This document shows positions 15,920 through 44,406 of a stretch of DNA of 64,000 bases, one piece after another. Below the pieces are notes generated by a model, which searched no databases, was not told the DNA's origin, and saw nothing but the letters and a program-made list of their open reading frames with translations. Source of the stretch: an uncultured Ignavibacteriales bacterium (GTDB lineage: Bacteria; Zixibacteria; MSB-5A5; GN15; FEB-12); NCBI GenBank assembly GCA_964464605.1, contig CAYXJN010000008.1, positions 124,001-188,000 on the forward strand. Reading direction: 5' to 3'. The first letter of the stretch is position 1. Every line of letters starts with the position of its first letter. Both the position numbers and the translations under genes were made by a program.

Positions 15920-16358
15920 ACGAACTCCTTTTTTATGTGCAACGACAGAAACTTTTGTATCGTCAAACACGATGTTTTCTGTCTTTCACACAACTCAACT
16001 ATTATAACAACTTTTCGCAAGCAAGCTATACTTTTTGCATTTTTCCATTCAATACAGGATTAATTTAGTAGAGATAAAGGCGCTGACATTCTGTTAATGA
16101 ATGAGAATAAATGGCTCCTGTTGCTTGCCGATACTTCAGTAATCAGATCTGAAAAGTGAGTTTTATTTCGAATAGGAATCAGGATAAAAACGGTATTGGT
16201 TTTATAAAAAAGGGAGCGCATCTGAGTGTTTGTAGGTGTGTGTGGACAGCATCTGCGAAGAGTTATGCAGAAAATAGTTTGAACCGCGACGCTACTTGAT
16301 ATATTTCACTTTCAAATATGACAACTGTCCGTACCAATACGAAAAGAAATCAATCAAT

Positions 16359-19899: not shown

Positions 19900-20128
19900 T
19901 ACGCGCTATCGATGAATGGCCGTGAGTTTAGAATAGTAACCAAATCGAATCTTACCTGAGGTCATTTCGGGATACCTTCGAAAATACCCGGATGATAGAT
20001 GCTTCGCCTGTCCGGTAAATTTGATTGAGAACGTCATGGTGAATGATGTTCTGCTGTTCCCCTATCGGTTTCAGAGCAGGCTCTCAAATCATTCGGAAAT
20101 TTGTCGTTGAAAAGGCTATTATTTTTTT

Positions 20129-20183
20129 ATGGCGGGGTCTACGAGACGCGTTTCGCAACTGGATCATGACCTCAGCCGCGTGA
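20129..20183. repeat. att-like repeat family 1: 20-bp core (reverse complement of a tRNA-Asp-like 3' end) plus orphan tail WRGLRDAFRNWIMTSAA*
   Basis: ATGGCGGGGTCTACGAGACG is identical at 27204 and 35031; the minus strand reads GT-CTCGT-AGACCCC-G-CCA. Confidence 0.85.
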
Positions 20184-20439
20184 GTTGACCTGCCAAAACT
20201 ACCCAAAACACCCCAAAAGTCAAGATTTGGCCGTTCTTATGGACAAACCGGAAGAGTCCCGACAAAGTTGCGTCAATGGACGTTGTTCGAACTTTTGAGG
20301 GGTCAATTCGATACCTATTGGCCGTTTGAGCAAGCCATTTCCATAGATGCTATTGTAATGTATTTTGCCAATCCATAAAAGCGCTCCTCGCTAAAAGTCT
20401 TGTCTAAGTGCTGATATAGTAATATGTTGAAACTATACT

Positions 20440-21006
20440 ATGGTTCTTGATGACTCTCAATTATGGAATGAAATTTTAGAGGGCAAGGAGCAGGCGTGGC
20501 GGAACCTGATAGTTCGTTATGCTTCTTTAGTCAATACCGTTGCTGTTCGATTGGGACTATCTTCTCAAGAAGCTGCTGATGTTTTCCAAACGGTCTGGGC
20601 TATCCTCTACGAGCGACGCAAGTCAATTAAGGAGCCATCCCGTATTTCCGCTTGGCTTGTGACAACTGCAAAAAGGGAATCGATAAAGGCAAAAGTTCAT
20701 CGAACGCCCGATGCCGATCCAGAATCAATGAAGGCGTTGGAAATTGAAGACAGTAATCTTCTTCCGGATGAGACGTTGGAACGTGTTGAACAACAGAACC
20801 ATCTGGAAACAGCACTTTTCGCAATTGATCCTCGCTGCCGGAAACTGCTTGAACGGTTGTTCTTTGCTGAAGAAGAGGTGTCCTATGAGCAGATAGGTGA
20901 AGAACTGGGCATTGCCTTTAATTCCTTAGGGCCGACTCGCCAACGGTGTTTGGAGAAACTTAAGAAAGTACTATTGGAAAGTGGCTATTTAGATGTACGA
21001 AAATAG
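20440..21006 (+). CDS. ECF-type RNA polymerase sigma-70 factor
   Basis: AADVFQTVW, ISAWLVTTAKRES (region 2), SYEQIGEELGI..LGPTRQRCLEKL (region 4). Confidence 0.92.
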   Translation: MVLDDSQLWNEILEGKEQAWRNLIVRYASLVNTVAVRLGLSSQEAADVFQTVWAILYERRKSIKEPSRISAWLVTTAKRESIKAKVHRTPDADPESMKALEIEDSNLLPDETLERVEQQNHLETALFAIDPRCRKLLERLFFAEEEVSYEQIGEELGIAFNSLGPTRQRCLEKLKKVLLESGYLDVRK

Positions 21007-21024
21007 CAATTTGCTGCTCTGTAT
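20993..21024 (+). promoter_or_regulatory. Putative cognate ECF promoter ATGTACGA-N16-CTCTGTAT, copy 1
   Basis: The same two 8-mers with the same 16-nt spacing recur at 25815-25846, each upstream of a gene of this module. Confidence 0.6.
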
Positions 21025-21040
21025 CTATGAGAACTGAAAT

Positions 21041-21622
21041 ATGAGTAAAAATCTATCCAACAAGCATTTGTCGCGCAAGGAGTTAATAGTATTCTCGAAG
21101 TCTGTGGCAGGGGCTTTACCGGAACACCTGAGCGTGTGTAAGGACTGTTCTGGATTGCTTGAACTATTCACTCGTTTTCAAGTTGCTGGAGAACGTCAAC
21201 TGGAAAACGTTCCAGCGGGTTGGATCGAAAAAGCGGTGGCAATTGCTAAACCAAAACGCGTCAAAGAGGCAATTCAACAGTTGGTTGCTTACTTGGCGTT
21301 TGATTCGTGGACTCAACCGATTCCTATCGGTGTTCGCTCGATGGGACAATTGGCTAATCGTCGAGTTCGCTACAACGTCAATGAATACAGCATTGACATA
21401 CGAATGGAGAAGCAACAGACCGAGTATGCGTTCATTGCAACAGTTTCTAAAAAAGATGAACGAGATCCATCTTTTACTCTGGTCAGCGCTGGTCGCTCAG
21501 TTGTGGCGGATGAGGATGGTTACTACCAGTGGGTTTCTTCACGGCCACCGAAGCGGATTTCATTCCATTCGTCGGATATTATTATTCATCTACCGGTGAC
21601 ACTATGGAACAAGCCGAGTTAA
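21041..21622 (+). CDS. Putative zinc-finger anti-sigma factor with soluble beta-rich C-terminal domain
   Basis: H..HLSVCKDC (HxxxCxxC) directly after the ECF gene; LAFDSW..GVRS; no transmembrane helix seen. Confidence 0.65.
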   Translation: MSKNLSNKHLSRKELIVFSKSVAGALPEHLSVCKDCSGLLELFTRFQVAGERQLENVPAGWIEKAVAIAKPKRVKEAIQQLVAYLAFDSWTQPIPIGVRSMGQLANRRVRYNVNEYSIDIRMEKQQTEYAFIATVSKKDERDPSFTLVSAGRSVVADEDGYYQWVSSRPPKRISFHSSDIIIHLPVTLWNKPS

Positions 21623-24339
21623 CTTTAGATCGCTCAGCGACGCTATTTTTGAAGAGTGGCAACCTAAACGGGCAAGATCAAGCTGCTCTTGCTTTATCAA
21701 TCGATAGTCATATACGACAATTGGCTCAGCGTTCGCTGAAAAATGCTCTTTTTCTTTCGCGAACTTACGCTAAGGCAGCGGATAAGGCTGGCGGCCAAAT
21801 GGTGCTTGCCGCACAAAGAACGCTTGCGCGGGTGACTCACCAAAACGGATTACACTCCGAAGCGGAGGCGGCATACAAGCGGGCCTGGGCACTGGCAAAA
21901 GATGATGTCATCATTCGGGCGCGTCTCGATCGGTCACTTATCGACCTGTATATGTATCTTGGTGATTTTGATGAATCGCAGCGCCGCGCAAAAAATGCTC
22001 TGCGTATCTTCGGCGCCAAAAAGATGGTTGCGGACATTGCGATGACGAATGTCAACTATGCGAATATGATGCATCGACAGGATAAACATGTCGACGCTGA
22101 ACGGTTGTATCATAAAGCACAGCGGTATTTTGAAGGTGCAGGAGACGAGCTATCTACCGCTCGCTGCTATTACAATCGAGCAAATACTCTGGTACAACTT
22201 TTCTCATTTGATCTTGCTGAAGAATTGTATACAAAAGCAGATCGGATATATCGTCATCATCAGTTTTTTCTGGATTCTACCGAATCTCGTTATGGATTGG
22301 CCTGGCTAAAGATGCTTCGTGGTGAGTTTCACATTGCTTTGTCTGAACTACAGAATTGCGAAGATGAATATCGAAAGGCGGATCATCCAAGAGGCTGTGC
22401 ACTGTGTAAGCTTGATAGAGCTGAAATTTATCTCGGATTGAATCTTTTTCCCGATGCACTTGAATCAGCAAGGCACGCAGGAAAGGAATTCAAACGATTG
22501 AAACTCCACTACGAAATGGCAAAAGCAGAGTTGTTTTGCACTCAGGCGCTGTTGGGGCTTGGTCGTACTTCTGAAGCGCGAAATGTTATTAACCGAGTGG
22601 TTGCAGCGTTTGAAAAAGAGAAAAATTCTGGCTTTCTTGGCGCATCTTTATTGACCTCAGCCGCTCTAACTACCAAGTCTGACGATGCTCTAAAAACACT
22701 TCGGAAAGCAAGGAAGCTATTTACTCATTCACAGCTTCCGCTTTGGCAGGCAATCTGCGATGTTCGCCTTATAGATATTCCAAATTCTGCCACCTCAGCC
22801 CTTAATCGACTTGAGAGAAATCGAGCTGCCCAATCGGTTCCACATCTGTTTTCAGCAGTTCAAACAGCTATCGGCGATCAGTGCGCAAAACGGGGTGAGC
22901 TGCCAACTGCCAGACGTCATTGGTCAAAAGCGGCACGACGTTTGGAATCAGTTCGTGCGCAACTTCCGCCACTTGAAATGCGAGATGCATTCTCACGAAA
23001 TCGATTGGAACCATTCCGTCGATTGATTGAAACTTACTTGGAAAGTGATCCGCATCAAGCAGCGCTGTGGATTGATAGATATCGGACAGCTGGTCTTTGG
23101 ACGCCAATATCAAACACGCTACACAATGACCCGGCGAGAATCTCTGCGGTTACTGCATTGCAAAGTCTCGCGGAACAAGTATCGAGCCTCTCACGGCAGA
23201 TAAGCTCCAATAAACGGGATTACGCCATTTCTTTGACACAATCTTCCTATTCAGTTAATAAGCTGATAGCATCACTCGAAAGGAAGATACGATTGAGAAT
23301 GGCTGCGCTGGAAAAAAGAACAAACGGCAACTTTGAAGAAACAGATATGCTGTCAGACTATTTCAAATCACTTTCATACAAACAACCGATCGTTCAATTT
23401 CACTTCGATTCTACGAATATCTTTGCCGTTATTCATTATAGAGGGGAAGCGCGTGTGCACCGTTATGAACAAGGGAAACAGAAGATCGAAGCTCTCATGC
23501 AGAGGTGGCGATTTCTTCTTGATCAAGCAATTTGTTCAGAGCAGGAAAATTACACTTCATCGGATGAAAACGTCCTTTTCGATCGTTTAGGCAAGCTACT
23601 TTGGGATCCATTGCAATTGCCGGGAAGTGCTGATTCTGTGTTGATTTTTCCAGATGGGGTACTCTCAAATCTGCCGTGGAGTGCGGTTCGTACAAAAGGC
23701 AAAGCACTTATCGATCAGATAGGAATAATACTTGCCCCAAGTGTTCGCCATTTTGCAGCAGCACAATCGCGTGAAAAACAGTATTCCCGTCGAATAATTT
23801 TTGCCGCGGCTTCCAATGATATCCCGCAGGTCAAAAAGGAAATTCAGGAAATCACAGCAAATAAAGAAAGTCTTTGGATCACCTTCGATCCTTCCAAACG
23901 TGCCGATTGGTTGCAAGCTGAGGGTTCCGATGCCTGGCATTTTGCCGGACATGCCCATTTCCGTTCCGACAATCCATTTTATTCCTACCTCAGTCTTACA
24001 GATGGGCCGTTATTTGCCGCTGATCTCCGGTTGAAACAAACTGCTGTAAATCTTGTTACTTTAGCAGCGTGTCGAACTGGTGAACAAACCACGGGTTCTG
24101 GAGAAGAACCATCAGGTTTTGTTCGCTCCCTTCTCGAAATGGGAGCCCGTACAGTGATTGCTGGGCATTGGGCTGTATCGGATACCTCAACGGCCTTATG
24201 GATGAAGACTTTTTATCAGAATTATGATTCAAACATACCAATCAGTGATGCCGTTCGAAAATCTTCTAAATGCGTTCGAGAGCGGTTTCCATCTGCTTGT
24301 CACTGGGCAGCATTTTCGGTATTTGGCACGGTTTCATAG
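21604..24339 (+). CDS. TPR-repeat CHAT-domain (caspase-like) protease
   Basis: Long TPR region, then IFPDGVLSNLPW, HFAGH (His), LAACRTG (Cys), WAVSD, HWAAFSVFG; start refined to MEQAEL. Confidence 0.9.
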   Translation: MEQAELTLDRSATLFLKSGNLNGQDQAALALSIDSHIRQLAQRSLKNALFLSRTYAKAADKAGGQMVLAAQRTLARVTHQNGLHSEAEAAYKRAWALAKDDVIIRARLDRSLIDLYMYLGDFDESQRRAKNALRIFGAKKMVADIAMTNVNYANMMHRQDKHVDAERLYHKAQRYFEGAGDELSTARCYYNRANTLVQLFSFDLAEELYTKADRIYRHHQFFLDSTESRYGLAWLKMLRGEFHIALSELQNCEDEYRKADHPRGCALCKLDRAEIYLGLNLFPDALESARHAGKEFKRLKLHYEMAKAELFCTQALLGLGRTSEARNVINRVVAAFEKEKNSGFLGASLLTSAALTTKSDDALKTLRKARKLFTHSQLPLWQAICDVRLIDIPNSATSALNRLERNRAAQSVPHLFSAVQTAIGDQCAKRGELPTARRHWSKAARRLESVRAQLPPLEMRDAFSRNRLEPFRRLIETYLESDPHQAALWIDRYRTAGLWTPISNTLHNDPARISAVTALQSLAEQVSSLSRQISSNKRDYAISLTQSSYSVNKLIASLERKIRLRMAALEKRTNGNFEETDMLSDYFKSLSYKQPIVQFHFDSTNIFAVIHYRGEARVHRYEQGKQKIEALMQRWRFLLDQAICSEQENYTSSDENVLFDRLGKLLWDPLQLPGSADSVLIFPDGVLSNLPWSAVRTKGKALIDQIGIILAPSVRHFAAAQSREKQYSRRIIFAAASNDIPQVKKEIQEITANKESLWITFDPSKRADWLQAEGSDAWHFAGHAHFRSDNPFYSYLSLTDGPLFAADLRLKQTAVNLVTLAACRTGEQTTGSGEEPSGFVRSLLEMGARTVIAGHWAVSDTSTALWMKTFYQNYDSNIPISDAVRKSSKCVRERFPSACHWAAFSVFGTVS

Positions 24340-24353
24340 GAGTTAAATAAGTT

Positions 24354-25748
24354 ATGCGCAAAATGTTTCAATTCAGCAACGCACTTGTCTGGATATCTTG
24401 CTTTCTATGCGGAAGTACTATTTTTGCTGGCAACGGTGTAGATGACAAAGTTCCAGGTGAAATAGTATTAAAACTGTTGCCGGGTGAAAACATTGACTCT
24501 GTTAATGCTCGCTTTGGAACAATTACAAAAAAATATATTCCACAAACCGGCAATTACCTTCTCACAGCTCAGTCGGGACAGGACACCGACAGTCTGTCGA
24601 CAGAAATTGAAGTGGAGAATGAAGTAGAATTTTGTGACCCCAATTTCATTCTAGATGCCCCTGAGCCAGTTCAGTCGAGCCAACCGTTCTTGGATAATCA
24701 ATTCATTGGCACATATGAAAATCAAACAGCCGCGTCTACGTTGCATCTAAGCGAAGCCCAGCAGGTGACGACCGGAAGTAATATCATGGTGGGGGTGATT
24801 GATGGCGGGGTCAATATTTCGCATCCAGTTTTTGAAGGTACTGCTTCTTATGGGTATGATTTCGTTGATGGGGATTCAATTGCGGATGACCCTATGGGCG
24901 GCAATGGATCGGGGCATGGTACATTTATTGCGGGAGTGATTAAGCTGGTTGCGCCGGACGCGCAAATAGTTTCCTACAGGGTTTTTGACACGAGTGGCCG
25001 AGGCGATGGCTTTAGTATCGCTGAAGCTATAACATTGGCCGTTGATGATGGGTGCAAGGTTATTAACCTGAGTATGGTGATGTTTGATAAGCACGGTTCT
25101 ATTGATGCGGCACTGGCATACGCAAGGCTCCACAATGTACTGGTTGTGGCTGCCGCTGGCAATGATTCATCAACCGTTGAGCGGTTCCCGGCAAAAGACT
25201 CGGATGTCTTGGCTGTTGCAGCCGTTGATTCGTTGAATCGCCGTGCTGATTTTTCGAATTTTGGTGGGAAAATCGATGTTTGCGCACCGGGAATTAATGT
25301 ATACGCGCCGTTCTTAGATACCATGTTTGCGTGGTGGAATGGTACAAGTTTCGCAACCCCCTTTGTTGCCGGACAGGCGGCGCTCCTCTTTTCGATGAGC
25401 CCTAATACACATCGAGAGGCGGTTCGGACAGCGATAATAAATACAGCGATCGATATCGACAGCTGGAATCCTGGATTGGAGGGAGAATTAGGTGACGGAT
25501 TGATCGATATCCCGTCGTCTTTATCGGCGTTTGCTCCGTTTCGTTGCGGGGACATGAACAACAATGGGTTAGGGCCGACCATAAGTGACTTAACCTATCT
25601 GGTTCAGTTCCTTTTTGGCGGTGGAAATCCCCCTCAGAACTTAGTTTCGGCTGACGTGAATGGAACAGGAAACGTAACGGTAGCAGATTTGGTCTATTTA
25701 GTGGGCTATCTCTTTAACAATGGCCCCGCGCCCAATTGCGGGAATTAG
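24354..25748 (+). CDS. Secreted S8 subtilisin-like protease with dockerin-like C-terminus
   Basis: Signal peptide; triad VIDGG / GHGT / GTSFATP; AAAGND; tail DLTYLVQFLF..DLVYLVGYLFNNGPAPNC. Confidence 0.92.
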   Translation: MRKMFQFSNALVWISCFLCGSTIFAGNGVDDKVPGEIVLKLLPGENIDSVNARFGTITKKYIPQTGNYLLTAQSGQDTDSLSTEIEVENEVEFCDPNFILDAPEPVQSSQPFLDNQFIGTYENQTAASTLHLSEAQQVTTGSNIMVGVIDGGVNISHPVFEGTASYGYDFVDGDSIADDPMGGNGSGHGTFIAGVIKLVAPDAQIVSYRVFDTSGRGDGFSIAEAITLAVDDGCKVINLSMVMFDKHGSIDAALAYARLHNVLVVAAAGNDSSTVERFPAKDSDVLAVAAVDSLNRRADFSNFGGKIDVCAPGINVYAPFLDTMFAWWNGTSFATPFVAGQAALLFSMSPNTHREAVRTAIINTAIDIDSWNPGLEGELGDGLIDIPSSLSAFAPFRCGDMNNNGLGPTISDLTYLVQFLFGGGNPPQNLVSADVNGTGNVTVADLVYLVGYLFNNGPAPNCGN

Positions 25749-25771
25749 AAATCTAAGGCGTTGAATGATAT

Positions 25772-25808
25772 AAACTCCTGTCCGGTTTACGGACAGGAGT
25801 TTTTTTTG
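25772..25808 (+). terminator. Intrinsic terminator
   Basis: aaactcctgtcc-ggtttac-ggacaggagttt stem-loop followed by a T run. Confidence 0.85.
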
Positions 25809-25814
25809 CACTCA

Positions 25815-25846
25815 ATGTACGATAGCCATGTTGCGACTCTCTGTAT
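25815..25846 (+). promoter_or_regulatory. Putative cognate ECF promoter ATGTACGA-N16-CTCTGTAT, copy 2
   Basis: Lies just after a terminator and upstream of the DUF5666 gene; boxes identical to 20993-21024. Confidence 0.6.
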
Positions 25847-25887
25847 TTGTAAACAAAGCCGGAAAACAGCTATCAGAAAGGATTATT

Positions 25888-27084
25888 ATGAAAAAGACAC
25901 GAGCGATTCACTTTAGCAGCCTAATTGCCGCCTTAGTTCTGGCAGTGATGGCGATCGGTTGTTCAGACAGCGATAAACGGGGTCAACTTACCGGTTCGGC
26001 TAATACGATTACTGGCGGTCGTTTTTCCGGAGGCGAAGTTGAAGTTGCTGGTCGTGTGTTGACCATTGACGCCAACGGACGAATCATGACTCTTTCTGGA
26101 TTCCAATCCACTATTGAAATTGCACCGGACGCTGAGGTTGTCTTGCGTGACAATAACGGTGAGACACCGATTACGCTTTCGCAAATCAATCCAGGTGACT
26201 CGGCCGAAGTACGTGGAGATATGCAAGGAAACGGCACTTTGCTTGCCGATCGCGTTCGTATTCGAATGGATGAGAATGAGAACGAAATTGAAAAAGGTGG
26301 TAGAGTAGAATCCATTGACGCCATAGCCCGCACCTTAACTCTTAAAAATGACCCTACATTGTATCAAGTAGCCGCAAACGCTCAAATAGTGCAAAAAGTA
26401 TCTGGAACCGAAACTCCTATCGACTTAGGTGATATTACTCCAGGTGATTCAGTTGATATACGTGGCAGCGCGCAAACAAATGGATCAGTACTTGTCGATC
26501 GCTTACGTTTGCGAGTCGGGTTTGATGATGACTTTGCCTCTGATTTAGAATTCAAAGGTGAAATTACTGAGATCGACTACACTGGTAGTACTTTCTCGGT
26601 AAGCACTCGCTCCGGTGTTATTAGTGTTGATGCAAATACTTACATTTTTACCAAGGTAGATTTCAATGACACAGCAAGTGGAATTGCAAAGCGCAACGGT
26701 GAGTCTACCGATACGCGCCTTAAGCAGCGCATTCAATTTACTGACCTCGTTGCCGGTGATACAGTCGAAGTGTATGCAAAAGTGACCGGGCTGAATATGT
26801 ACTATGCAGTTGCCGTAGAACTTGAAGATGGGGCGTTTGAAAATGATCAGGAAGTTGAGTTCAAATCAGTGATTGCAGCGATCGACGCGAATACTCGTGT
26901 GGTCACATTTACGACAGAATCATGGATTGGCAATGTGCATATTGACGCGGTGCTGACTGGTCTAAATGATGAGGCAATCGTACTAAGCGCATTCGCAGTA
27001 GGCCAGATCGTCGAAGTCAAAGGCTTCTCCCAGCCTAACGGTGAGCTGACAATAACGGAAATGAAAAGAGACAATAACCTGTAA
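25888..27084 (+). CDS. DUF5666 repeat (OB-fold-like) lipoprotein
   Basis: Lipobox AIGC; four repeats of the pattern GxVxxID..GDxVEVxG; AGAAAGGA RBS before MKKTRA. Confidence 0.75.
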   Translation: MKKTRAIHFSSLIAALVLAVMAIGCSDSDKRGQLTGSANTITGGRFSGGEVEVAGRVLTIDANGRIMTLSGFQSTIEIAPDAEVVLRDNNGETPITLSQINPGDSAEVRGDMQGNGTLLADRVRIRMDENENEIEKGGRVESIDAIARTLTLKNDPTLYQVAANAQIVQKVSGTETPIDLGDITPGDSVDIRGSAQTNGSVLVDRLRLRVGFDDDFASDLEFKGEITEIDYTGSTFSVSTRSGVISVDANTYIFTKVDFNDTASGIAKRNGESTDTRLKQRIQFTDLVAGDTVEVYAKVTGLNMYYAVAVELEDGAFENDQEVEFKSVIAAIDANTRVVTFTTESWIGNVHIDAVLTGLNDEAIVLSAFAVGQIVEVKGFSQPNGELTITEMKRDNNL

Positions 27085-27111
27085 CAGAAACCCTCTCTGA
27101 ACCAGGTTCAA

Positions 27112-27149
27112 AGACCTCCGGTATCCGATATTCGGTGTCGGGGGTTTTT
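27112..27149 (+). terminator. Probable intrinsic terminator
   Basis: Imperfect stem-loop agacctccggtatccga-tat-tcggtgtcggggg followed by ttttt. Confidence 0.6.
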
Positions 27150-27203
27150 CATTTTCAGATCGTTTGTAAAAAACTGAATCGATATCTGAATGTTGAAAGT
27201 CAA

Positions 27204-27258
27204 ATGGCGGGGTCTACGAGACGACTTCCGCAACTGGGTATTGAACTCGGTGGCTTAA
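27204..27258. repeat. att-like repeat family 1 plus orphan tail WRGLRDDFRNWVLNSVA*
   Basis: 20-bp core identical to 20129 and 35031. Confidence 0.85.
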
Positions 27259-27346
27259 ATCTGCGGTAACATCAAGCTAATAGCATACACTAAATTGACA
27301 TTATTTCGACAGTGACAAGCGATACCTGTCCAATTAGATTACTTTC

Positions 27347-27643
27347 ATGAAATCAAACGATGTCTGTTATCCAATTCTGCTACACAAGATACCAGGGGTA
27401 GATACACCAAACGATACTGTCACACGTCATATTGCATTTGTAAAAGATATCGACGATCAGGAAAAACTAATTCTTGCAGGGCCGTTCGGAGATTTTCCCG
27501 GCGGGATGGTGGTTGTACGAGCTGAATCAGTAGAAGCTGCAACCAAGATTGCCGAGTCTGATCCGTTTGTCACTGAGGGTGTCCGAACATTCGAAGTGCG
27601 GACCTGGCTGTTGGCTAACCGTGGAAACGGGTATTTGAAATAA
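27347..27643 (+). CDS. YciI family protein
   Basis: RHIAFV..LILAGPF..GGMVVVRAES..ESDPFVTEG. Confidence 0.85.
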   Translation: MKSNDVCYPILLHKIPGVDTPNDTVTRHIAFVKDIDDQEKLILAGPFGDFPGGMVVVRAESVEAATKIAESDPFVTEGVRTFEVRTWLLANRGNGYLK

Positions 27644-27826
27644 GGCCGAGTTAACCCTTCGGGAATGATGTTTATTGCCGTAACTTATTGCTGATCAATG
27701 AAATGATAAGAAAAGCCAGTTTGAGCGAGAAGGTTTTCGCAATTACGCCCGGTCGTTTTAAGTCCAAAATAAAAAATAAGTGAAAAAAGTAACAATTTGG
27801 CCTTGACTAAATGAAATGAAATACCG

Positions 27827-27854
27827 ATATATAAGACAAAAGACTCTTAAATCT
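27827..27854. promoter_or_regulatory. Putative Rrf2 operator, site 1
   Basis: Inverted repeat TAAGA-N8-TCTTA just before the Rrf2 start; shares AGACTCTNAAATCTG with 28338-28366. Confidence 0.45.
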
Positions 27855-27857
27855 GGA

Positions 27858-28298
27858 ATGAGTGTGTTATTATCTAAAGGTTGTGCGTACGCAATTCGAG
27901 CTTCACTTCTTGTAACGGTCAAAGAAGTGAAGGATGGCAGGAAGTTCATCCCGATCCGTGAGCTTGCCGATGAACTTGATCTCTCATTTCATTTCTTGAC
28001 GAAAATTCTTCAGACCTTGACCGAAGCTAACATACTCGAATCATTTCGCGGTCCCAACGGGGGAGTAGGTCTGGCGCGACCGGCCAAAGACCTTTATCTG
28101 CTCGACATCATTTCTGCCGTCGACGGTATGTCACTTTTCTCGGAATGTGCGCTTGGGCTGCCCGGATGCGGTGAACGTACACCTTGTCCCCTGCACGAAT
28201 CTTGGGCAAGAAGAAGAGAAGACCTCAGACGGATGTTTGAGAAAACCTCTCTTGCAGGTCTGGCTAAGGAACTAACGGCAAATCATTTACGGAAATAG
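27858..28298 (+). CDS. Rrf2-family transcriptional regulator with three Cys (Fe-S type)
   Basis: YAIRA, HTH FLTKILQTL, SFRGPNGG, CALGLPGCGERTPCPLH; start refined to MSVLLSK. Confidence 0.9.
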   Translation: MSVLLSKGCAYAIRASLLVTVKEVKDGRKFIPIRELADELDLSFHFLTKILQTLTEANILESFRGPNGGVGLARPAKDLYLLDIISAVDGMSLFSECALGLPGCGERTPCPLHESWARRREDLRRMFEKTSLAGLAKELTANHLRK

Positions 28299-28337
28299 GA
28301 TGCCATGAACGTCATAGAAAAGAAATGGTGTTTGGTT

Positions 28338-28365
28338 AGATTTAGGATATCAGACTCTGAAATCT
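28338..28365. promoter_or_regulatory. Putative Rrf2 operator, site 2, upstream of the nos operon
   Basis: Inverted repeat AGATTT-aggatatcagactctg-AAATCT, similar to site 1. Confidence 0.45.
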
Positions 28366-28425
28366 GTATCCGCTCATTTCGAAAAGCACATCTTCAAGCA
28401 AACACATATTTAAGGAGATACTTTT

Positions 28426-28971
28426 ATGAGAAGAATTAGGAAGGGCTATGTACTGCGAGCAGTAATGTTATCCGCTGTGACCTGTTTAATTTTCATTGGT
28501 TGCGCTTCAACTCAGGAGACAGAGACACAGCGGCAAGCTCGGTGGTCTCAGGGGAAACTGTCTAGTTGGGAAGTTGAGAACGGCATTGGGCCCATTACTG
28601 CTGACATCGAAATTGGCGTAGTCGATCCTGCTAAAGCCGAGCAGGGGAAACAGCTATTTGCCAACAAGTGTGCGACCTGCCATTACCTTGATTTCAAGAA
28701 GACCGGACCTCCTCTCAGAGACGTAACGAAAAGACGCAGCGAATACTATGTTGTGAATCAAATCCTCAATCCGGAACAAATGGGAAAGATGCATCCTTAC
28801 GGTAAACAACTGGTAGCTCAGTACGCACAGTATATGACAATTCAAGGAATTACTCGAGACGATGCATTCGCTTTACTCGACTTCCTCAGAACACAGGCGA
28901 CTCAGCCGCCGGTACCTATGGAGCAACAGCCCGGCTTCGGCGTTCCTGCCTCGCCGGTAGCAACGCAATAA
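28426..28971 (+). CDS. Monoheme cytochrome c lipoprotein of the clade II nos cluster
   Basis: Lipobox FIGC; CATCH heme motif; GPPLRDVTKRR; directly upstream of nosZ. Confidence 0.88.
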   Translation: MRRIRKGYVLRAVMLSAVTCLIFIGCASTQETETQRQARWSQGKLSSWEVENGIGPITADIEIGVVDPAKAEQGKQLFANKCATCHYLDFKKTGPPLRDVTKRRSEYYVVNQILNPEQMGKMHPYGKQLVAQYAQYMTIQGITRDDAFALLDFLRTQATQPPVPMEQQPGFGVPASPVATQ

Positions 28972-29022
28972 TTGAAAATGGGAAGTTGAATTTATGCAAT
29001 TGATACACAGGAAGGAAAATAT

Positions 29023-30936
29023 ATGAGAACGAAATATCTCGTTCATTGGCTCACAGTATCTGCTTTTGTTGTGTTTTCACTTGTCATCGGCTGCTCCAAA
29101 AATGAGGAGGCTGGTGGTTTTGGAGAAGCAGCGGATAAAGTATACGTAGCTCCGGGCAGTTATGATGAATTCTACGCCTTTATGTCCGGAGGTTTTAGCG
29201 GACAAGTTTCCGTCTATGGACTACCGTCGGGTCGTTTATTTCGGGTGATTCCCGTTTTCAGTCAAGATCCCGAAAAAGGATATGGATATAGTGAAGAGAC
29301 GAAGCCCCTGCTTATGACCTCTCACGGCTTTGTACCTTGGGATGATGCCCATCATCCTCAACTATCAATGACCGATGGTCAGACCGATGGGCGTTGGCTC
29401 TTTATCAACGGGAACAATACCCCTCGGATAGCGCGACTTGATCTCACGACTTTTGAAACGGCGGAAATCATCGAGATTCCAAATTCCGGAGGAAATCATG
29501 GTTCTCCTTTCTTAACGCCGAACACGGAATATGTAGTTGCCTCGACGCGATTCAGCGTGCCAATTCCGCAAAAAGATGTACCGATTACATCGTATAAGGA
29601 AAATTTCAAAGGAACTATCTCATATATCAAAGTTGATCCTGCTTCCGGACGCATGAATGTCGCTTTCCAGATTCTCGTTCCGGGAATCAACTATGATCTT
29701 TCTCGATCCGGCAAAGGTCCGTCGTATGGCTGGTCATTCTTCACTTCTTATAACTCGGAACAGGCAAATACCCAACTGGAGGTAAATGCCTCACAAAACG
29801 ACAAAGATCTCATTGCGGCGGTCAATTGGAAGTTGGCGGAAGAACTGATTGCACAAGGCAAAGGGGAAAGCTGGCCTGCATCTTATTATCACAATTATGT
29901 GGATGATGCCGATGTTGCCCAGAGCGAAGTCAAGGAAAAGGTCACCGTGTTGATCGCCAAGGATCACCCCGGGCTGGTGTATTACCTACCAACGCCTAAG
30001 TCACCTCATGGTTGCGATGTTGACCCTACTGGCGAGTATATAGTTGCCGGCGGAAAGCTTGCCGCGCTCATTCCGGTGCATTCTTTCACTAAATTCAAAG
30101 CAGCTGTTGAGAATAAAGAGTTCGACGGCGATCTTGAAGGAATTCCAATCTTGAAATACGAATCAGTATTGGCAGGTGAAGTTAAAGAACCGGGTCTCGG
30201 ACCGCTTCATACTGAATTTGACGGTAAAGGATTCGGCTATACTTCGATGTTCTTATCCTCTGAGATCGTAAAATGGAAAATTGGTACGTGGGAAGTCATC
30301 GATCGTATCCCCACGTATTATTCTATCGGCCATCTCATGATTCCAGGGGGGGACACGAAACAACCGTACGGCAAATATGTTCTCGCTTTGAACAAGATTA
30401 CGAAAGATCGCTACCTGCCGACCGGCCCTGAATTGACGCAATCCGCCCAGCTCATTGATATCACCGGTGACAAAATGAAGCTGCTACTTGATTTTCCGAC
30501 CATTGGCGAACCCCATTATGCTCAAGCGTGTCCTGCCACACTTATCAAAGATCGTTCACTACGATGGTTTCCGATTTCTGAAAACAAGAATCCCTACGGT
30601 ATCAAATCAGAGGGAGAAGCGCGGGTGATTCGAGACGGCAAAAACGTTCACGTGTATATCAGTACCATTCGCTCTCACTTTGCGCCCGATAATATTGAGG
30701 GCATAAAGAAGGGCGATAACGTCTACTTTCATGTCACCAATCTGGAACAGGATTGGGATGTACCGCACGGATTCAGCGTTTTGGGAGCGAATACCTCTGA
30801 GTTGCTTGTCATGCCGGGCCAGACGAGAACGCTGCTCTGGCAGCCGCAAGACATTGGCGTATTCCCGTTTTATTGCACCGATTTCTGCTCTGCGCTTCAT
30901 CAGGAGATGGAGGGCTGGATCAGGGTGTCGAATTAA
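29023..30936 (+). CDS. nosZ: Sec-dependent (clade II) nitrous-oxide reductase
   Basis: Lipoprotein signal without twin-Arg; CuZ His motifs DAHHP, GNHG, SPHG, PLHT, IGHL, EPHY; CuA site HGF..CTDFCSALHQEM. Confidence 0.97.
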   Translation: MRTKYLVHWLTVSAFVVFSLVIGCSKNEEAGGFGEAADKVYVAPGSYDEFYAFMSGGFSGQVSVYGLPSGRLFRVIPVFSQDPEKGYGYSEETKPLLMTSHGFVPWDDAHHPQLSMTDGQTDGRWLFINGNNTPRIARLDLTTFETAEIIEIPNSGGNHGSPFLTPNTEYVVASTRFSVPIPQKDVPITSYKENFKGTISYIKVDPASGRMNVAFQILVPGINYDLSRSGKGPSYGWSFFTSYNSEQANTQLEVNASQNDKDLIAAVNWKLAEELIAQGKGESWPASYYHNYVDDADVAQSEVKEKVTVLIAKDHPGLVYYLPTPKSPHGCDVDPTGEYIVAGGKLAALIPVHSFTKFKAAVENKEFDGDLEGIPILKYESVLAGEVKEPGLGPLHTEFDGKGFGYTSMFLSSEIVKWKIGTWEVIDRIPTYYSIGHLMIPGGDTKQPYGKYVLALNKITKDRYLPTGPELTQSAQLIDITGDKMKLLLDFPTIGEPHYAQACPATLIKDRSLRWFPISENKNPYGIKSEGEARVIRDGKNVHVYISTIRSHFAPDNIEGIKKGDNVYFHVTNLEQDWDVPHGFSVLGANTSELLVMPGQTRTLLWQPQDIGVFPFYCTDFCSALHQEMEGWIRVSN

Positions 30937-30950
30937 CATGTGATGAATAT

Positions 30951-32102
30951 ATGATTTACCAAAATGAAATCACCGGCTCCGTTGAAAGGCGTGAGCCGGC
31001 GCTTCATGCCAAGACGCAAAGCAGTCGAGTCCAGATGAAACCTATTTCCCGACTCTTCGTTGGCTTAGCGGCATTGCTTTTAGCGGCAACGTACTTTCTT
31101 CCACTTTGGGAGATATCTCTGAATGCACCGCAATATCCGGAAGGGTTAGGCATGGAAATCTGGATCAATCAGATTCAAGGTCAGCATGAAGGAGATCTAA
31201 AAAAAATCAACAATTTGAACCATTATATCGGAATGAAACAAATAAAGCCGGAATCAATTCCCGAACTTTTGATCATGCCGTGGATAATGCGGGGTGTGAT
31301 GTTGTTCGGGTTACTTGTCGCTCTATTGGGAAGGCGAGGTATGCTCTTGATGTGGCTGTTTCTCTTTTTGCTGGTTTCTGCTGCCGGGTTTGTTGACTTC
31401 TATCTTTGGGGATATGACTACGGTCATAATCTTGATTTCGATAAAGCAATTATTAAGGTCCCCGGGATGAGTTATCAACCTCCGCTCATCGGAACCAAAA
31501 AACTTCTCAACTTCGAAGCGACCTCACTGCCGGGCATGGGAGGCTACATTCTGATAGTCGCAGTTCTCATTGGCACAGGTGTGTGGGGGTATGAGAAACG
31601 GTTACGAGTGTTGCTGAAGCGAGCAATAGTGCAAACAGCTACGATAGGAACAGCCGTACTTGTGCTCATGAGCGGCAGCATCGCGTGCAGTTCATATCGT
31701 CCTGCGAGAATAAGCTATGGAATAGATCAATGCGATTATTGTAAAATGACCATAGTCGACAAAAGTTTCGGAGCAGAGCTGGTCACCACAAAGGGGAAAA
31801 TATATAAATTCGATTCCATCGAGTGCCTTGCTGCTGCCGCACTCGAAAGGGATGGCAAATCGGAATCAAATTATTCCCTTTGGGTCACCAATTTTCACGA
31901 ACCGGAAGTGTTTTTAAACGTCGAGAATGCATTCGTTGTTGCCGCAGAGCGACAAAGAAGCCCGATGGGTGTAGGGCTGGTCGGTGTTGATTCCAAAGAA
32001 GCAGCCACGGAACTGATTGGGCATGTGGGTGGTGTGCTTCTAAAATGGAGCGAAGTTAAAAAACATGTCGCGCAGGCTTGGAGGCTGCCTACTGCCAAAT
32101 GA
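30951..32102 (+). CDS. nosL: NosB-like membrane protein fused to NosL copper chaperone
   Basis: N half APQYPEGL, NNLNHYIGM, WGYDYGHNLD, YQPPLIG; C half CDYCKMTI, FDSIEC, SPMG; start uncertain (30951 or 31035). Confidence 0.85.
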   Translation: MIYQNEITGSVERREPALHAKTQSSRVQMKPISRLFVGLAALLLAATYFLPLWEISLNAPQYPEGLGMEIWINQIQGQHEGDLKKINNLNHYIGMKQIKPESIPELLIMPWIMRGVMLFGLLVALLGRRGMLLMWLFLFLLVSAAGFVDFYLWGYDYGHNLDFDKAIIKVPGMSYQPPLIGTKKLLNFEATSLPGMGGYILIVAVLIGTGVWGYEKRLRVLLKRAIVQTATIGTAVLVLMSGSIACSSYRPARISYGIDQCDYCKMTIVDKSFGAELVTTKGKIYKFDSIECLAAAALERDGKSESNYSLWVTNFHEPEVFLNVENAFVVAAERQRSPMGVGLVGVDSKEAATELIGHVGGVLLKWSEVKKHVAQAWRLPTAK

Positions 32103-33397
32103 TTCGTACGAACTATTCAACATGTGTTGCCAAGCTCATCAAGAAAATCAAGTTGAACAGACTGATACCATGTCTGCCGGCTTTGCTCCTTGTTCAGTCG
32201 GTTACACCCCGTGTTGATGGTAAAGTGCTAACGGTCGGACCCATAGATCACTATCTGACTCTTTCCTCGGCTGTTAGTGGCGCAAGAGCCGGCGATACAA
32301 TCGTCGTTCAGTCAGCAACCTACACGTTGAATAATCTTCAAATAGACAAACCAATCGCATTGCTTGGTAAAGATTGGCCTACATTGACTGCGTCTGAAAA
32401 CTCTCATTTGGTCAGCATCACTGCTTCAAATGTTGTGATATCCGGCTTCATTTTTAAAGGAGTGCCGATCAGCTTTACCAAGGAAAATGCCGCAATACGG
32501 ATAGATACAGCACATAATTGTGAGGTCATCGGTAACCGCTTTTATGACAATTTCTTCGGCGTTTACCTGGCCGGTTCTCATCATTGCCGCGTCGCAAACA
32601 ATGAGATAGTTGGTTCAGCGAAAAACTTGACGACGGCAGGCAATGGTATACATCTGTGGAAATGTCATGATATACTCATTGAACAAAACAGAATCGAAAA
32701 GCATCGTGATGGCATATACCTTGAATTCGTTACTGCGAGTGTCATGCAGCACAATATAAGTCGTGAGAATTTGCGCTACGGCCTCCATTTTATGTTCTCC
32801 GATAGCTGCCGCTATACAAGCAATCAATTCATTCAGAACGGTGCAGGTGTCGCCGTCATGTACACGGCTCACGTGGATATGACGGACAATGTTTTTGAAG
32901 ACAGCTGGGGTGGGGCTTCGTATGGTTTACTGCTGAAGGATATCAAGGACAGTCGAGTTACCGACAACCATATAGCAAACAACTCTGTCGGAATATACCT
33001 GGAAGGTTCCGACCGCATAGAGATTCAGCGTAATACCTTTATTGCGAACGGCTGGGCGGTGAAAATAATGGCTAATTGCGTTGATGCCGAAATCCATGGC
33101 AATAATTTCATTGATAATTCATTTCAAGTTACCACGAATAGCAGGCAGACGTTCAGCCGGTTTTATGAAAACTATTGGAGTACGTACCGCGGATTCGATC
33201 TTGACCATGATGGCTGCGGTGATGTTCCCTTTCGCCCGGTCAGTTTGTTTTCACTTTTGGTCGAATCTGATCCGGCAACACTGGTATTAGTACGCAGCCT
33301 CCTTGTTGATCTGCTTAATTTAGCCGAGTGCGTGATGCCATCGCTTACCCCCGAAGCGCTAACCGATGCCAAGCCGCTCATGAGGCCGGCGATATGA
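32099..33397 (+). CDS. nosD: N2O reductase maturation protein NosD
   Basis: Beta-helix repeats, GNGIHLW, RDGIYLEF, RYGLHFMFS, NYWSTY..GDVPFRP; ATGA overlap with the previous gene. Confidence 0.93.
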   Translation: MIRTNYSTCVAKLIKKIKLNRLIPCLPALLLVQSVTPRVDGKVLTVGPIDHYLTLSSAVSGARAGDTIVVQSATYTLNNLQIDKPIALLGKDWPTLTASENSHLVSITASNVVISGFIFKGVPISFTKENAAIRIDTAHNCEVIGNRFYDNFFGVYLAGSHHCRVANNEIVGSAKNLTTAGNGIHLWKCHDILIEQNRIEKHRDGIYLEFVTASVMQHNISRENLRYGLHFMFSDSCRYTSNQFIQNGAGVAVMYTAHVDMTDNVFEDSWGGASYGLLLKDIKDSRVTDNHIANNSVGIYLEGSDRIEIQRNTFIANGWAVKIMANCVDAEIHGNNFIDNSFQVTTNSRQTFSRFYENYWSTYRGFDLDHDGCGDVPFRPVSLFSLLVESDPATLVLVRSLLVDLLNLAECVMPSLTPEALTDAKPLMRPAI

Positions 33398-34104
33398 TCG
33401 AAATCCACGGTCTTTACAAACGCTTCGGGAAACAGGTTGCGCTCCAGGAGATTAACCTTTCCATTCAGCGAGGCAGAGTCACCGGAATCATCGGACCAAA
33501 CGGATCAGGCAAAACAACGTTAGTAAAATGCCTGCTTGGATTGGTAACGCCAACGAGCGGAAGAATTACCATTGACGGGAAATTACTCGATGGGGCAAGT
33601 CACTATCGAAAGAACTTAGGCTATGTTCCTCAAGCCGCAAGTTTCCCGCTTGAATTAACCGGACGTGAAATTCTGAACGTTATACGAGGCTTGCGGGATG
33701 AAACAGAAACGAAGGAATCCGAACTCCTTAAACTGTTTGGTCTCAAACATGAAATAGACAAGCGGGTGAAAGCGATGTCGGGCGGCACTCGTCAGAAACT
33801 GAGCGTAGTGGCCGCTTGCATGTATTCCCCGGAATTACTCATTCTGGATGAACCTACGGCAGGGCTTGATCCTATTTCCAACATTCGATTGAAAGAATAC
33901 ATTTCACAACTACGAGATGATGGATGCACTATACTTTTGACTTCGCACATCATGAGCGACTTGGAAGAGTTGGCTGACGATGTCGTGATATTACTCGATG
34001 GCGTTCTGCGCTTTCTCGGCTCTGTTCGGGATCTCAAAGTAGCAATGGAAGAACCGAGTCTGGAAAAGGCAGTTGCGCTGCTTTTGGAGCGAGGCGCAGC
34101 GTGA
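33394..34104 (+). CDS. nosF: ABC ATPase NosF
   Basis: GPNGSGKT, MSGGTRQK, ILDEPTAGLD; located between nosD and nosY. Confidence 0.9.
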   Translation: MIEIHGLYKRFGKQVALQEINLSIQRGRVTGIIGPNGSGKTTLVKCLLGLVTPTSGRITIDGKLLDGASHYRKNLGYVPQAASFPLELTGREILNVIRGLRDETETKESELLKLFGLKHEIDKRVKAMSGGTRQKLSVVAACMYSPELLILDEPTAGLDPISNIRLKEYISQLRDDGCTILLTSHIMSDLEELADDVVILLDGVLRFLGSVRDLKVAMEEPSLEKAVALLLERGAA

Positions 34105-34892
34105 AGTCAGTCGGTCATATCGCTTGGTATACTATCCGTGACATCACGCGCAACCGATGGGGGCTATTGTACACGCTGTTTTTTATCGTCGTGACTGTCG
34201 GCCTATTCTTGTTGCAGTCGCATGCGGCAAAAGTAGCAGTGAGCCTGATGAGCATTTGCCTGTTTCTTATCCCGCTAGTCAGTTCATTGTTCGGTACCAT
34301 TTATTTCTATAATTCACGCGAGTTTATCGAATTAGTACTTACGCAGCCAATTTCGAGGAAGACCGTCTTTCTCGGAATGTTTGCCGGATTGTCCTGTGCG
34401 CTCATCGCCGGGTTTGCTATCGGTATTGCTTTGCCGTTCATTTTTTGGAGCGCGCAAATCTCCGGTCAAATACTCTCGCTTGCGCTGTTAGTATCGGTCG
34501 GTTCTTTTTTGACCGTTATTTTTCTCGCGCTCTCTTTTTTATCTGCAATTTTATTTGATGACAGAGGAAAGGGAATTGCTGTTACGCTCGGCGCCTGGCT
34601 TTTTACGGCTTTGGTATATGACGGATTGATTTTACTCGCCGCGATGTCGTTTTCTGATTATCCCCTCGAAATACCACTATTGGCCACTTCAATGGCAAAC
34701 CCCATCGATCTCGCTCGCGTAACATTGCTTGTTCAGACTGATTGGGCTGCGCTTATGGGTTACACAGGCGCAGTATTCAGCAGATTCTTTGGAACAAATC
34801 TCGGAGTATTTGTTGCTGCAGTCTCACTAATCGCCTGGTCCATCGGGCCGCTTTTAGTAGGGATTCGCAAATTCAGAACTAAAGATCTTTGA
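34101..34892 (+). CDS. nosY: ABC permease NosY
   Basis: Six TM helices; YNSREFIEL, NPIDLARV, ALMGYTGA. Confidence 0.9.
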   Translation: MKSVGHIAWYTIRDITRNRWGLLYTLFFIVVTVGLFLLQSHAAKVAVSLMSICLFLIPLVSSLFGTIYFYNSREFIELVLTQPISRKTVFLGMFAGLSCALIAGFAIGIALPFIFWSAQISGQILSLALLVSVGSFLTVIFLALSFLSAILFDDRGKGIAVTLGAWLFTALVYDGLILLAAMSFSDYPLEIPLLATSMANPIDLARVTLLVQTDWAALMGYTGAVFSRFFGTNLGVFVAAVSLIAWSIGPLLVGIRKFRTKDL

Positions 34893-35030
34893 GCAGGAAA
34901 TTGTGATGTTCATAGCATCCAATTTCAATAAGAGCTTGCCGAGATTTCTTTCTAATTATTTGCTTAACTATAACAAACTACGCAAAGTGCCACTATATTA
35001 ATTTATTGTCTGATAATTACTTGCGGAAAA

Positions 35031-35085
35031 ATGGCGGGGTCTACGAGACGAGTTTCGCAACTGGATTCTGACTTCCGCGGCTTAA
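35031..35085. repeat. att-like repeat family 1 plus orphan tail WRGLRDEFRNWILTSAA*
   Basis: 20-bp core identical to 20129 and 27204; in-frame stop at 35014-35016 and no start codon before the core. Confidence 0.85.
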
Positions 35086-39464: not shown

Positions 39465-39469
39465 GATTC

Positions 39470-40850: not shown

Positions 40851-40861
<11 letters not shown>
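39470..40861 (+). CDS. czcB: Heavy-metal efflux periplasmic adaptor with His/Asp-rich segment
   Basis: HGHGDSHDEHGGDDHESHDGEDAHGDH; HIVPRFPG; VADMSTVWV; C-terminal SEAGHDH. Confidence 0.88.

Positions 40862-44406
<3,545 letters not shown>

Follow-up and report, generated by a model that had tools for sequence, protein, structure and literature searches.

Direct repeats anchored at a tRNA-Asp gene in a Zixibacteria genome are very probably scars of islands stacked by a large serine recombinase family

Genomic islands stacked at the 3′ terminus of an essential gene for a small RNA have been described at the ssrA locus of Dehalococcoides (PMC3146451), which, as far as the portion of that study used here extends, is the closest precedent for the locus analyzed in this work. 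There, a large serine recombinase (LSR) gene, dsiB, whose product is a homologue of CcrB, lies beside the junction at the RNA gene, and tandem islands follow downstream, each bounded by a 20-bp direct repeat of the target 3′ end. An extra conserved motif, which has no match in the target gene, accompanies the repeat. Fifteen of these islands have no integration module and were proposed to be cis-mobilizable by accretion, and respiratory operons are found as cargo (PMC3146451). In the tycheposons of Prochlorococcus, partial tRNAs and fragmented integrases are described as marks of old integration events, and an LSR is given for 27 of 937 elements (10.1101/2020.12.28.424599). Here we analyzed a stretch of 64,000 nucleotides (hereafter the window) from an uncultured bacterium of the phylum Zixibacteria (assembly GCA_964464605.1, contig CAYXJN010000008.1, C8:124001–188000 of genome G000 in our numbering). 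The window contains three copies of a 20-mer, ATGGCGGGGTCTACGAGACG, and the repeats that begin with it are very probably attR-type scars of islands integrated at the 3′ terminus of the sole tRNA-Asp gene by a family of LSRs.

The copies at 20129, 27204, and 35031 are all on the + strand without a mismatch, as the initial annotation of the window had stated. No further match with up to three mismatches was found in the window, where none was expected from 100 shuffles. These are also the only copies of the 20-mer in the whole genome (2,816,089 bases in 18 contigs), three forward and none reverse, and it is not scattered in the manner of repetitive extragenic palindromes (REP) or miniature inverted-repeat transposable elements (MITE). 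Alignment of the copies indicated that the repeat is approximately 55 bp long, with a sharp left edge at the 20-mer followed by about 35 further conserved bases, and that it ends at 20183, 27258, and 35085. We designate the tRNA-like part of this unit as the core and the remainder as the arm. ARAGORN and Rfam gave no tRNA or RNA family within the window, and none of the repeat copies, in the window or in relatives, was called as a tRNA or showed a cloverleaf. A partial tRNA with an expanded T-loop was ruled out as the nature of the repeat, the likeness to tRNA-Asp being limited to approximately 17–19 bases.

ARAGORN identified 46 tRNAs in the genome, including a single copy of tRNA-Asp(GTC) on the minus strand at C8:192336–192410 (window-equivalent positions 68336–68410), with a tRNA-Val (C8:192508–192581, minus strand) as its neighbor. 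The tRNA-Asp gene is located 4.3 kb past the right edge of the window and 33 kb to the right of the third repeat. Of 17 bases at its 3′ end, 16 are shared with the core in reverse complement; at the foot of the acceptor stem the tRNA has C and the scars have A, and the core alignment places one extra C in the scars. The initial annotation had predicted a minus-strand tRNA-Asp to the right of position 64000 with a recombinase gene beside it. Both were found, the tRNA having C for A and no encoded CCA. Two recombinase genes on the + strand are directed toward the tRNA. The first encodes a tyrosine recombinase of 369 aa (C8:189570–190679; L004:3570–4679) and lies directly upstream of the second, which encodes an LSR of 490 aa (C8:190903–192375; L004:4903–6375) and whose open reading frame (ORF) ends 40 nt inside tRNA-Asp. 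The LSR has the domains expected of this class, Resolvase (PF00239, 2.4e-23), Recombinase (PF07508, 5.2e-16), and Zn_ribbon_recom (PF13408, 7.8e-15), and its best named matches, XisF, CcrB, CcrA, and CcrC, each score below the equivalog cutoff. For the tyrosine recombinase, the XerA/integron-integrase model gives 42.8 bits (cutoff 220). The locus thus has the arrangement of a tRNA-anchored island, with repeats that copy the 3′ end of an intact tRNA in the same orientation and a recombinase gene at the tRNA-proximal end.

The three repeats divide the region into two recombinase-free segments, module A (20184–27203, + strand, five ORFs) and module B (27259–35030, + strand, eight ORFs, an N2O-reductase module), and a third, LSR-bearing island C, which extends from 35086 to the window end at 64000 and on for 4.3 kb to tRNA-Asp. 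In accordance with the initial annotation, Pfam gave no recombinase family match among the 13 given ORFs of the two modules (20440–34892). All three scars lie on the + strand and can be read in the frame of the LSR. Scar 1 (attR-type, 20129–20183), whose core (20129–20148) resembles, on the minus strand, the 3′ end of tRNA-Asp, encodes WRGLRD-AFRNWIMTSAA-stop, with TGA at 20181–20183. Scar 2 (27204–27258) encodes WRGLRD-DFRNWVLNSVA-stop, with TAA at 27256–27258, and scar 3 (35031–35085), at the distal end of island C, encodes WRGLRD-EFRNWILTSAA-stop, with TAA at 35083–35085.

The core with its arm was found in other genera by a pattern search of 30 relatives, never inside a tRNA, and a scan of one genome per species yielded 85 stretches with both parts, nearly all from Zixibacteria metagenome-assembled genomes. 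Two of the 95 distinct copies (L080 and L094) are located inside unrelated genes and were dropped as fortuitous matches. When the LSR ORF is extended in frame through the core, the remaining 93 copies read (W/K/M)RGLRD and then D[DEA]FRNW[VI][IV]EN[AS]AA before a stop codon. The stop is reached in 91 of the 93 copies, and in 85 of these 91 it follows 8–14 codons past the D; all three types of stop codon are used. The encoded peptide ends with Ala-Ala in 60 of these 85 and with Ala in 77. For the 90 copies with enough flank, the third codon positions at +24, +27, +30, +36, and +39 carry 0.04–0.29 bits and the first and second codon positions of the arm 0.67–1.67 bits, the periodicity being read at positions outside the search pattern. 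The arm is therefore conserved as a coding sequence. The open frame to the left of each true copy is nevertheless at most 97 codons long; this coding tail is detached from its gene.

The gene from which the tail derives can be recognized from the C-termini of LSR homologues, 6103 of which were found at E ≤ 1e-20. Among the best 120 of these 6103, an antisense T-arm motif (DSN-like) is present near the C-terminus in 64, and another 37 end directly after ...RG because a tRNA-Asp variant reads TGA there, so that 101 of the 120 show one or the other ending. Arm-like tails are present in five (P0014, P0021, P0023, P0060, and P0066), and 14 are of neither kind. LSR homologues adjoin tRNA-Asp in G019, G022, G027, and G031, tRNA-Gln and tRNA-Asn in G029, and tRNA-Arg in G008, and the ORF of every such homologue reads antisense into its tRNA; the family has therefore diversified over several tRNA targets. 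The loci at tRNA-Gln, tRNA-Asn, and tRNA-Arg are L132 (G029:C120), L145 (G029:C129), and L137 (G008:C12). At one locus, L071, a single frame runs through the final ~36 residues of an LSR, the core, and the arm, and a search of 285 genomes of the phylum with this junction peptide gave seven more genomes with truncated LSR-core-arm junctions. The matches that reach the arm lie in open frames of only 48–95 aa. A fixed truncation point of the LSR remnants, which would have hinted at a maintained left half-site, was considered and rejected, the remnants differing in length. We conclude from these sequences that attP lies within the last ~17 codons of the LSR gene. Each chromosomal core with its arm is then the distal junction of an integration, and the repeats are very probably distal junction scars (attR type), with an arm that represents the 3′-terminal coding stretch of the LSR gene, severed when the element integrates.

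The position of the crossover can be narrowed from the bases that differ between element and tRNA. At the tRNA-side junctions, the base immediately preceding ACGAGAC is the tRNA-type G (corresponding to protein tails RG-RRD or RG-stop), and the scars have T at this position in 84 of 90 copies. Four bases to the left of ACGAGAC, the scars of G033 and G035 have the C of the element instead of the G of the tRNA. The exchange should therefore take place to the left of that base, within GCGGG. We infer that the crossover falls within the last ~5 tRNA bases (GCGGG), in which case only the last few bases of the tRNA would be replaced.

Same-orientation scar arrays anchored at tRNA-Asp were observed in four other genomes (G015, G031, G032, and G033), which supports the earlier proposal of successive capture at one tRNA. 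The G015 array has four scars over 38 kb, with no recombinase among its 36 given ORFs (Pfam) and a decayed LSR fragment beyond it. In G031, an LSR overlaps tRNA-Asp and is followed by four scars. This genome shares with G000 a backbone beside the tRNA that consists of ORF260, a QatC-like gene, ORF197, the tyrosine recombinase, and the LSR (34–58% aa identity). The G032 array has four scars and one core-only remnant, and no LSR was found at E ≤ 1e-5; the G033 array has two scars and no LSR at the locus. In these four genomes, most of the segments between scars are without a recombinase. In the one-genome-per-species scan, all of the 13 contigs with at least two copies have them in one orientation. 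Scars in genomes without an Asp-type LSR, together with decayed LSR remnants of varying length, indicate that decay also happens and that many scars are relics.

Three further observations concern individual scars. An isolated Asp-type scar on the + strand of G015 (G015:C1:491398; L040:8398) is located 150 kb from the array in the opposite orientation, 1.3 kb from a tRNA-Asn whose 3′ end mismatches the core; relocation of a scar or an off-target event may account for it. In L061 (DAOUUR010000008.1), scars at ~1446 and ~1500 are 54 nt apart, the second beginning directly past the stop of the first arm, and the pair is an empty "module". In G029 (G029:C30; L041:10321–17885), a module with an ECF sigma factor, a CHAT protein, and an S8 peptidase is placed between two scars in the opposite orientation to them. 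Its proteins show 40–46% aa identity to those of module A, and it looks like an independent capture of the same kind of module.

Comparisons between genomes showed that homology breaks at the cores, so that the module boundaries in relatives coincide with them, as had been anticipated. Populations with this locus come from bioreactor, sludge, and aquaculture sources. A 43.9-kb contig of run X12 matches positions 19300–35085 with seven differences and then continues into unlike DNA, and a second X12 contig matches island C from 35037 at ~96%, with other DNA to its left. Modules A and B are thus nearly the same in two natural populations that part from each other precisely at scar 3; the altered DNA is on its tRNA side, where stacking at the tRNA would be expected to place it. 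The DNA directly past the stop of arm 1 (20184–20215) recurs past a scar-3-like arm in the X12 contig beyond 35085, which suggests a conserved element "start" sequence in one lineage.

Two pairs of shared modules bear on movement. The 9.6-kb nos module of G033, in which no recombinase was found, is homologous to that of G035 from 16 bases left of the ACGAGAC of the core to the tRNA-Asp end, and nothing is shared over the ~18 kb to the left. Over the full match the identity is 91.9%, rising to 99% in the first 1.5 kb; the phosphoglucomutase (PGM) gene of the two genomes is 79% identical in nucleotide sequence. A methyltransferase module of 1.5 kb shared by G015 and G032 shows 80% nucleotide and 84% amino acid identity (PGM, 69% and 71%). 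The match extends across a non-coding spacer of 265 nt to the next core and is lost after 24 nt of the arm; the left bound is a scar in G015 and a core-only remnant in G032. Two further pairs, L053/L063 and L076/L108, have one-sided homology ending at the core. In G033 and G035 a homologous nos module follows a scar, and in G015 one adjoins an LSR remnant. The nos genes of G000 show only gene-level similarity to those of G033 and G015 (66–77% nucleotide identity) and share no junction DNA with them, and there is therefore no evidence of recent exchange for the nos module of the window itself. As far as these comparisons indicate, the two shared recombinase-free modules probably travel with a recombinase-bearing neighbor.

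We propose the following scheme, which builds on the observed repeats, tRNA, recombinase, and coding nature of the arm, and on the observed arrays and homology breakpoints at cores in other genomes. Integration would leave the body of the LSR gene against the tRNA, now ending in residues encoded by the antisense strand of the tRNA, and would leave its last 12–13 codons, the arm, approximately one island-length away behind a tRNA-like copy of the core. The tRNA and a target-like site would be rebuilt at each integration, so that insertion could be repeated; later elements would insert at the tRNA and push earlier ones outward, resulting in a same-orientation array. A recombinase-bearing element might then excise with a more distal scar and take passengers along, or excise alone and leave passengers against the rebuilt tRNA. 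Modules A and B would have been left behind or carried when a recombinase-bearing neighbor used a different site pair, with some decay in place, and the window would represent a composite state in which A and B are followed by the LSR-bearing island C with its recombinases still present. We infer that integration is the work of the LSR and not of the tyrosine recombinase, and that the modules move by accretion. Modules A and B are, from their sequences, most likely cis-mobilizable passengers. Their position between scars, without a recombinase and next to LSR-bearing island C, is that of a cis-mobilizable element (CIME). Accretion uses standard LSR reactions only and is the simplest account.

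Several observations weigh against this scheme. The cores of the scars contain CCA and an A, both of which are missing from the genome's own tRNA-Asp. In six of the 90 scars the tRNA-type G to the left of ACGAGAC occurs together with the arm, which a single fixed crossover fails to explain, and the protein P0020 also shows the reciprocal combination. No full-length LSR fused to a standard arm was found in the 95 copies or in the 285 genomes of the phylum, and the intact attP form is therefore represented by a truncated junction and the five variant tails. No excised circle, empty site, or deletion joint was seen in four runs, which covered contigs only and give no evidence either way on excision. 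Movement without a recombinase is supported by two module comparisons, of which G033/G035 could also reflect loss of distal modules in related species. Finally, a tyrosine recombinase gene directly precedes the LSR gene here and in five of the 11 other LSR loci (several of the others being cut by contig ends), and it could encode the integrase. The paired loci are L131, L132, L133, L145, and L160, whatever tRNA is targeted, with 38–42% aa identity; such a conserved two-recombinase module is unusual.

If the tyrosine recombinase catalyzed integration at the tRNA 3′ end, the LSR tail would overlap the tRNA by position only. The 3′ ends of tRNA genes are the classic targets of tyrosine integrases, and two 7-bp blocks of identity, CGGGGTC and ACGAGAC, together with the two types of hybrid core, would fit a 6–8-bp overlap region with heteroduplex repair. 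The constant partner is nevertheless the LSR: those of G019 and G022 are located at tRNA-Asp with no tyrosine recombinase within 1.5 kb upstream, the LSR ORF enters whichever tRNA is the target throughout the family, and the scores of the tyrosine recombinase fall well short of the cutoffs for the Xer and integrase families. We therefore consider this explanation improbable. A further alternative accepts the same sites but takes the modules as dead remnants whose own LSRs were deleted, so that nothing recombinase-free still moves. It accommodates the LSR remnants of various lengths to the left of some cores and the scar-bearing genomes in which no Asp-type LSR was found (G014, G015, G018, G023, G026, and G032), and the single-copy essential tRNA-Asp would set a hard boundary for deletions at the core. 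It is difficult to reconcile with the shared modules, since the methyltransferase module of G015 and G032, including its spacer, is more alike than PGM (80% vs 69%), and the recombinase-free nos module of G033 and G035 is 92–99% identical (PGM, 79%); the recombinase-free state is therefore older than the spread of these modules. That all modules are dead is possible but unlikely.

At the other extreme, the locus might be a true cassette platform in which single modules, each with its own core and arm, are moved one at a time by the LSR in trans. Modules shared between genomes do have unrelated neighbors on both sides, the arm is conserved from +7 to +21 even at synonymous sites (positions that are partly fixed by the search pattern), and approximately 10 of the 90 copies retain some codons of the LSR end to the left of the core. 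To our knowledge, two attR-type sites are not a normal substrate pair of an LSR. The DNA to the left of the cores is unconserved (0.0–0.5 bits at −29 to −13), and most sites are therefore without a full left half-site. Moreover, there is no hairpin at the sites, and accretion accounts for the same data with standard reactions. We regard such a platform as rather unlikely, and service in trans by a single recombinase, which was conjecture in the initial annotation, is not supported as written. It is extremely improbable that the repeat is no recombination site at all and represents instead a REP/MITE-like element, a 5′ leader or small RNA, or a short leader peptide. Copies 1 and 2 are indeed located upstream of + strand operons, and the 20-mer starts with ATG after an A/T-rich stretch. 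Against this stand the three copies per genome in one orientation, the arrays anchored at tRNA-Asp, and the conserved frame, which is that of the LSR and not that of the ATG. Copy 3 faces a convergent gene, Rfam gave no match, and the folding z-scores ranged from −1.43 to +0.35 relative to shuffles (six folds, three copies on both strands). The small RNA and the leader peptide were ruled out by this convergent gene, the missing Rfam/ARAGORN match, the absence of structure, and the LSR frame.

The chromosomal left flank contains core metabolic genes, as the initial annotation had noted: 2-oxoacid/pyruvate:ferredoxin oxidoreductase (PFOR) genes at 16296–19899 on the + strand, with POR_N, POR, PFOR_II, TPP_enzyme_C, and Fer4 domains. 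The GC content is 0.49–0.50 in this flank vs 0.44–0.47 in modules A and B. The PFOR-beta homologues of four relatives (L006–L009) have no tRNA-Asp within 1.5 kb. One of them (G017:C3:69882–71525; L006) has a single in-frame TGA in an open frame of 561 aa, which could be selenocysteine or an error; G000 has a tRNA-SeC at C4:47497–47588. The genes of both modules are on the + strand. Module A encodes an ECF sigma factor (20440–21006), a 193-aa ORF (21041–21622), a TPR-CHAT protein (21529–24339), an S8 subtilase/peptidase (24354–25748), and a DUF5666 protein (25828–27084). Module B encodes YciI (27347–27643), Rrf2 (27816–28298), a cytochrome c (28426–28971), a Sec-type NosZ (29023–30936; 937.6 bits on TIGR04246, cutoff 625), a NosL-domain protein (30873–32102), NosD (32078–33397), NosF (33328–34104), and NosY (34101–34892). 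Island C encodes a Kelch/galactose-oxidase-like protein (35152–37143, minus strand), a Cus-like RND efflux system (38148–44406), an ArsP permease, a methyltransferase, MerR with a Cu-type P-ATPase (49011–51757), and HMBD proteins. A type III restriction-modification pair (57258–61735, minus strand) precedes ORF260 (62013–62795), which adjoins the gene of a QatC-like protein (from 62782; 203 bits, below the cutoff of 280) and is conserved in G031. No conjugation genes were recognized among the island genes analyzed here.

One mechanism would account for 48 kb of accessory DNA in this genome and for comparable regions of other Zixibacteria. It involves a large family of LSRs whose genes terminate within tRNA genes; these enzymes are attractive as tools for site-specific integration, the natural target and the element-side site being readable from the sequence. 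Clade II (Sec-type) nosZ clusters are found on att-bounded recombinase-free modules in at least four genomes, and two of the nosZ module copies are far more alike than housekeeping genes, which bears on the spread of N2O-consuming capacity in sludge and sediment communities. The swap of the recombinase C-terminus on integration raises a regulatory idea for which the sole precedent is a phage repressor. In a broader, phylum-wide form, which we consider doubtful, operon-sized recombinase-free modules, including N2O reductase, each with a core and arm of ~55 bp, would be shuffled at the tRNA-Asp array by a neighbor-supplied LSR, and each recombination would rewrite the LSR C-terminus and couple the stability or direction of the LSR to the integration state. 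If so, the free or tandem LSR would end in the arm-coded ...FRNWVIENAA, with an Ala-Ala end like that of the ssrA degradation tag, and the integrated LSR would end in antisense-tRNA-coded residues or stop early.

Among the described systems, the Dehalococcoides ssrA islands resemble the present locus, in the portion of that study used here, in having an LSR at the junction, tandem islands, 3′-end repeats of ~20 bp, an extra motif, and recombinase-free members. The target in our case is tRNA-Asp and not tmRNA, and the phylum is Zixibacteria. The partner gene encodes a tyrosine recombinase here and a small serine recombinase there, and the extra motif is identified here as the recombinase's own 3′ coding tail, a statement not encountered in the consulted portion of PMC3146451. 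The SCC/ECC cassette chromosomes, according to the parts of the literature considered here, also show LSR-driven insertion at the 3′ end of a conserved gene, which is rebuilt, with att repeats of ~50 bp (CcrAB; PMC6222049), and form composite arrays with recombinase-free members (10.1101/336396). Remnants with att sites and without ccr genes are likewise known from that literature. Their target is, in contrast, a protein gene, rlmH, and two LSRs act together. The LSR described here has sub-threshold matches to CcrB, CcrA, and CcrC of SCC. We know of no report of an SCC/ECC att site inside the recombinase gene.

From the sections consulted, accretion of CIMEs and integrative and conjugative elements in Streptococcus is comparable in that att-flanked elements without recombination or transfer genes stand in tandem with a complete element and are moved along; it differs in that a tyrosine integrase acts at the fda gene and the elements are conjugative, whereas none of the conjugation genes was recognized here. 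As in the Prochlorococcus tycheposons, repeated integration at a tRNA pushes older elements into the island, although most of the recombinases there are of the tyrosine type, the repeats are plain partial tRNAs, and no coding arm was met in the portion of that work drawn on here (10.1101/2020.12.28.424599). Mycobacteriophage BPs has attP in the 3′ end of a gene, so that integration swaps the C-terminus of the protein, and its free form carries an ssrA-like degradation tag; unlike the present case, it is the repressor gene that is split, and integration is catalyzed by a tyrosine integrase, according to the part of the study considered (PMC4557955). By analogy, the arm-coded tail of the LSR may serve as a degron. 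The locus also resembles integrons in that same-orientation arrays of sites bracket recombinase-free units beside one recombinase. It is nevertheless no integron: there is no IntI, no attI/Pc, and no folded attC (z-scores of −1.43 to +0.35 in the six folds), the units are multi-gene operons with their own regulators and not promoterless cassettes, the enzyme is a serine recombinase, and a tRNA serves as the anchor. The initial annotation was right about the att sites and the tandem capture; its label of an integron-like platform is an analogy only, and its claim of novelty was overstated, close precedents being known. Literature searches that covered papers apart from supplements gave no description of an LSR gene that contains its attP and continues into a tRNA, and nothing relevant on Zixibacteria, integrases, and tRNA; a single-protein search gave no LSR relatives in viral contigs, which is uninformative on whether the elements are viral. 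The locus is thus a known kind of island stacking with some new twists. Apparently new, no description of them having come up in these literature searches, are a tRNA-targeting LSR family whose gene spans attP and has its C-terminus swapped on integration, the conserved pair of tyrosine recombinase and LSR, the phylum-wide spread in Zixibacteria, and nosZ as a recurring cargo (G000, G015, G033, and G035).

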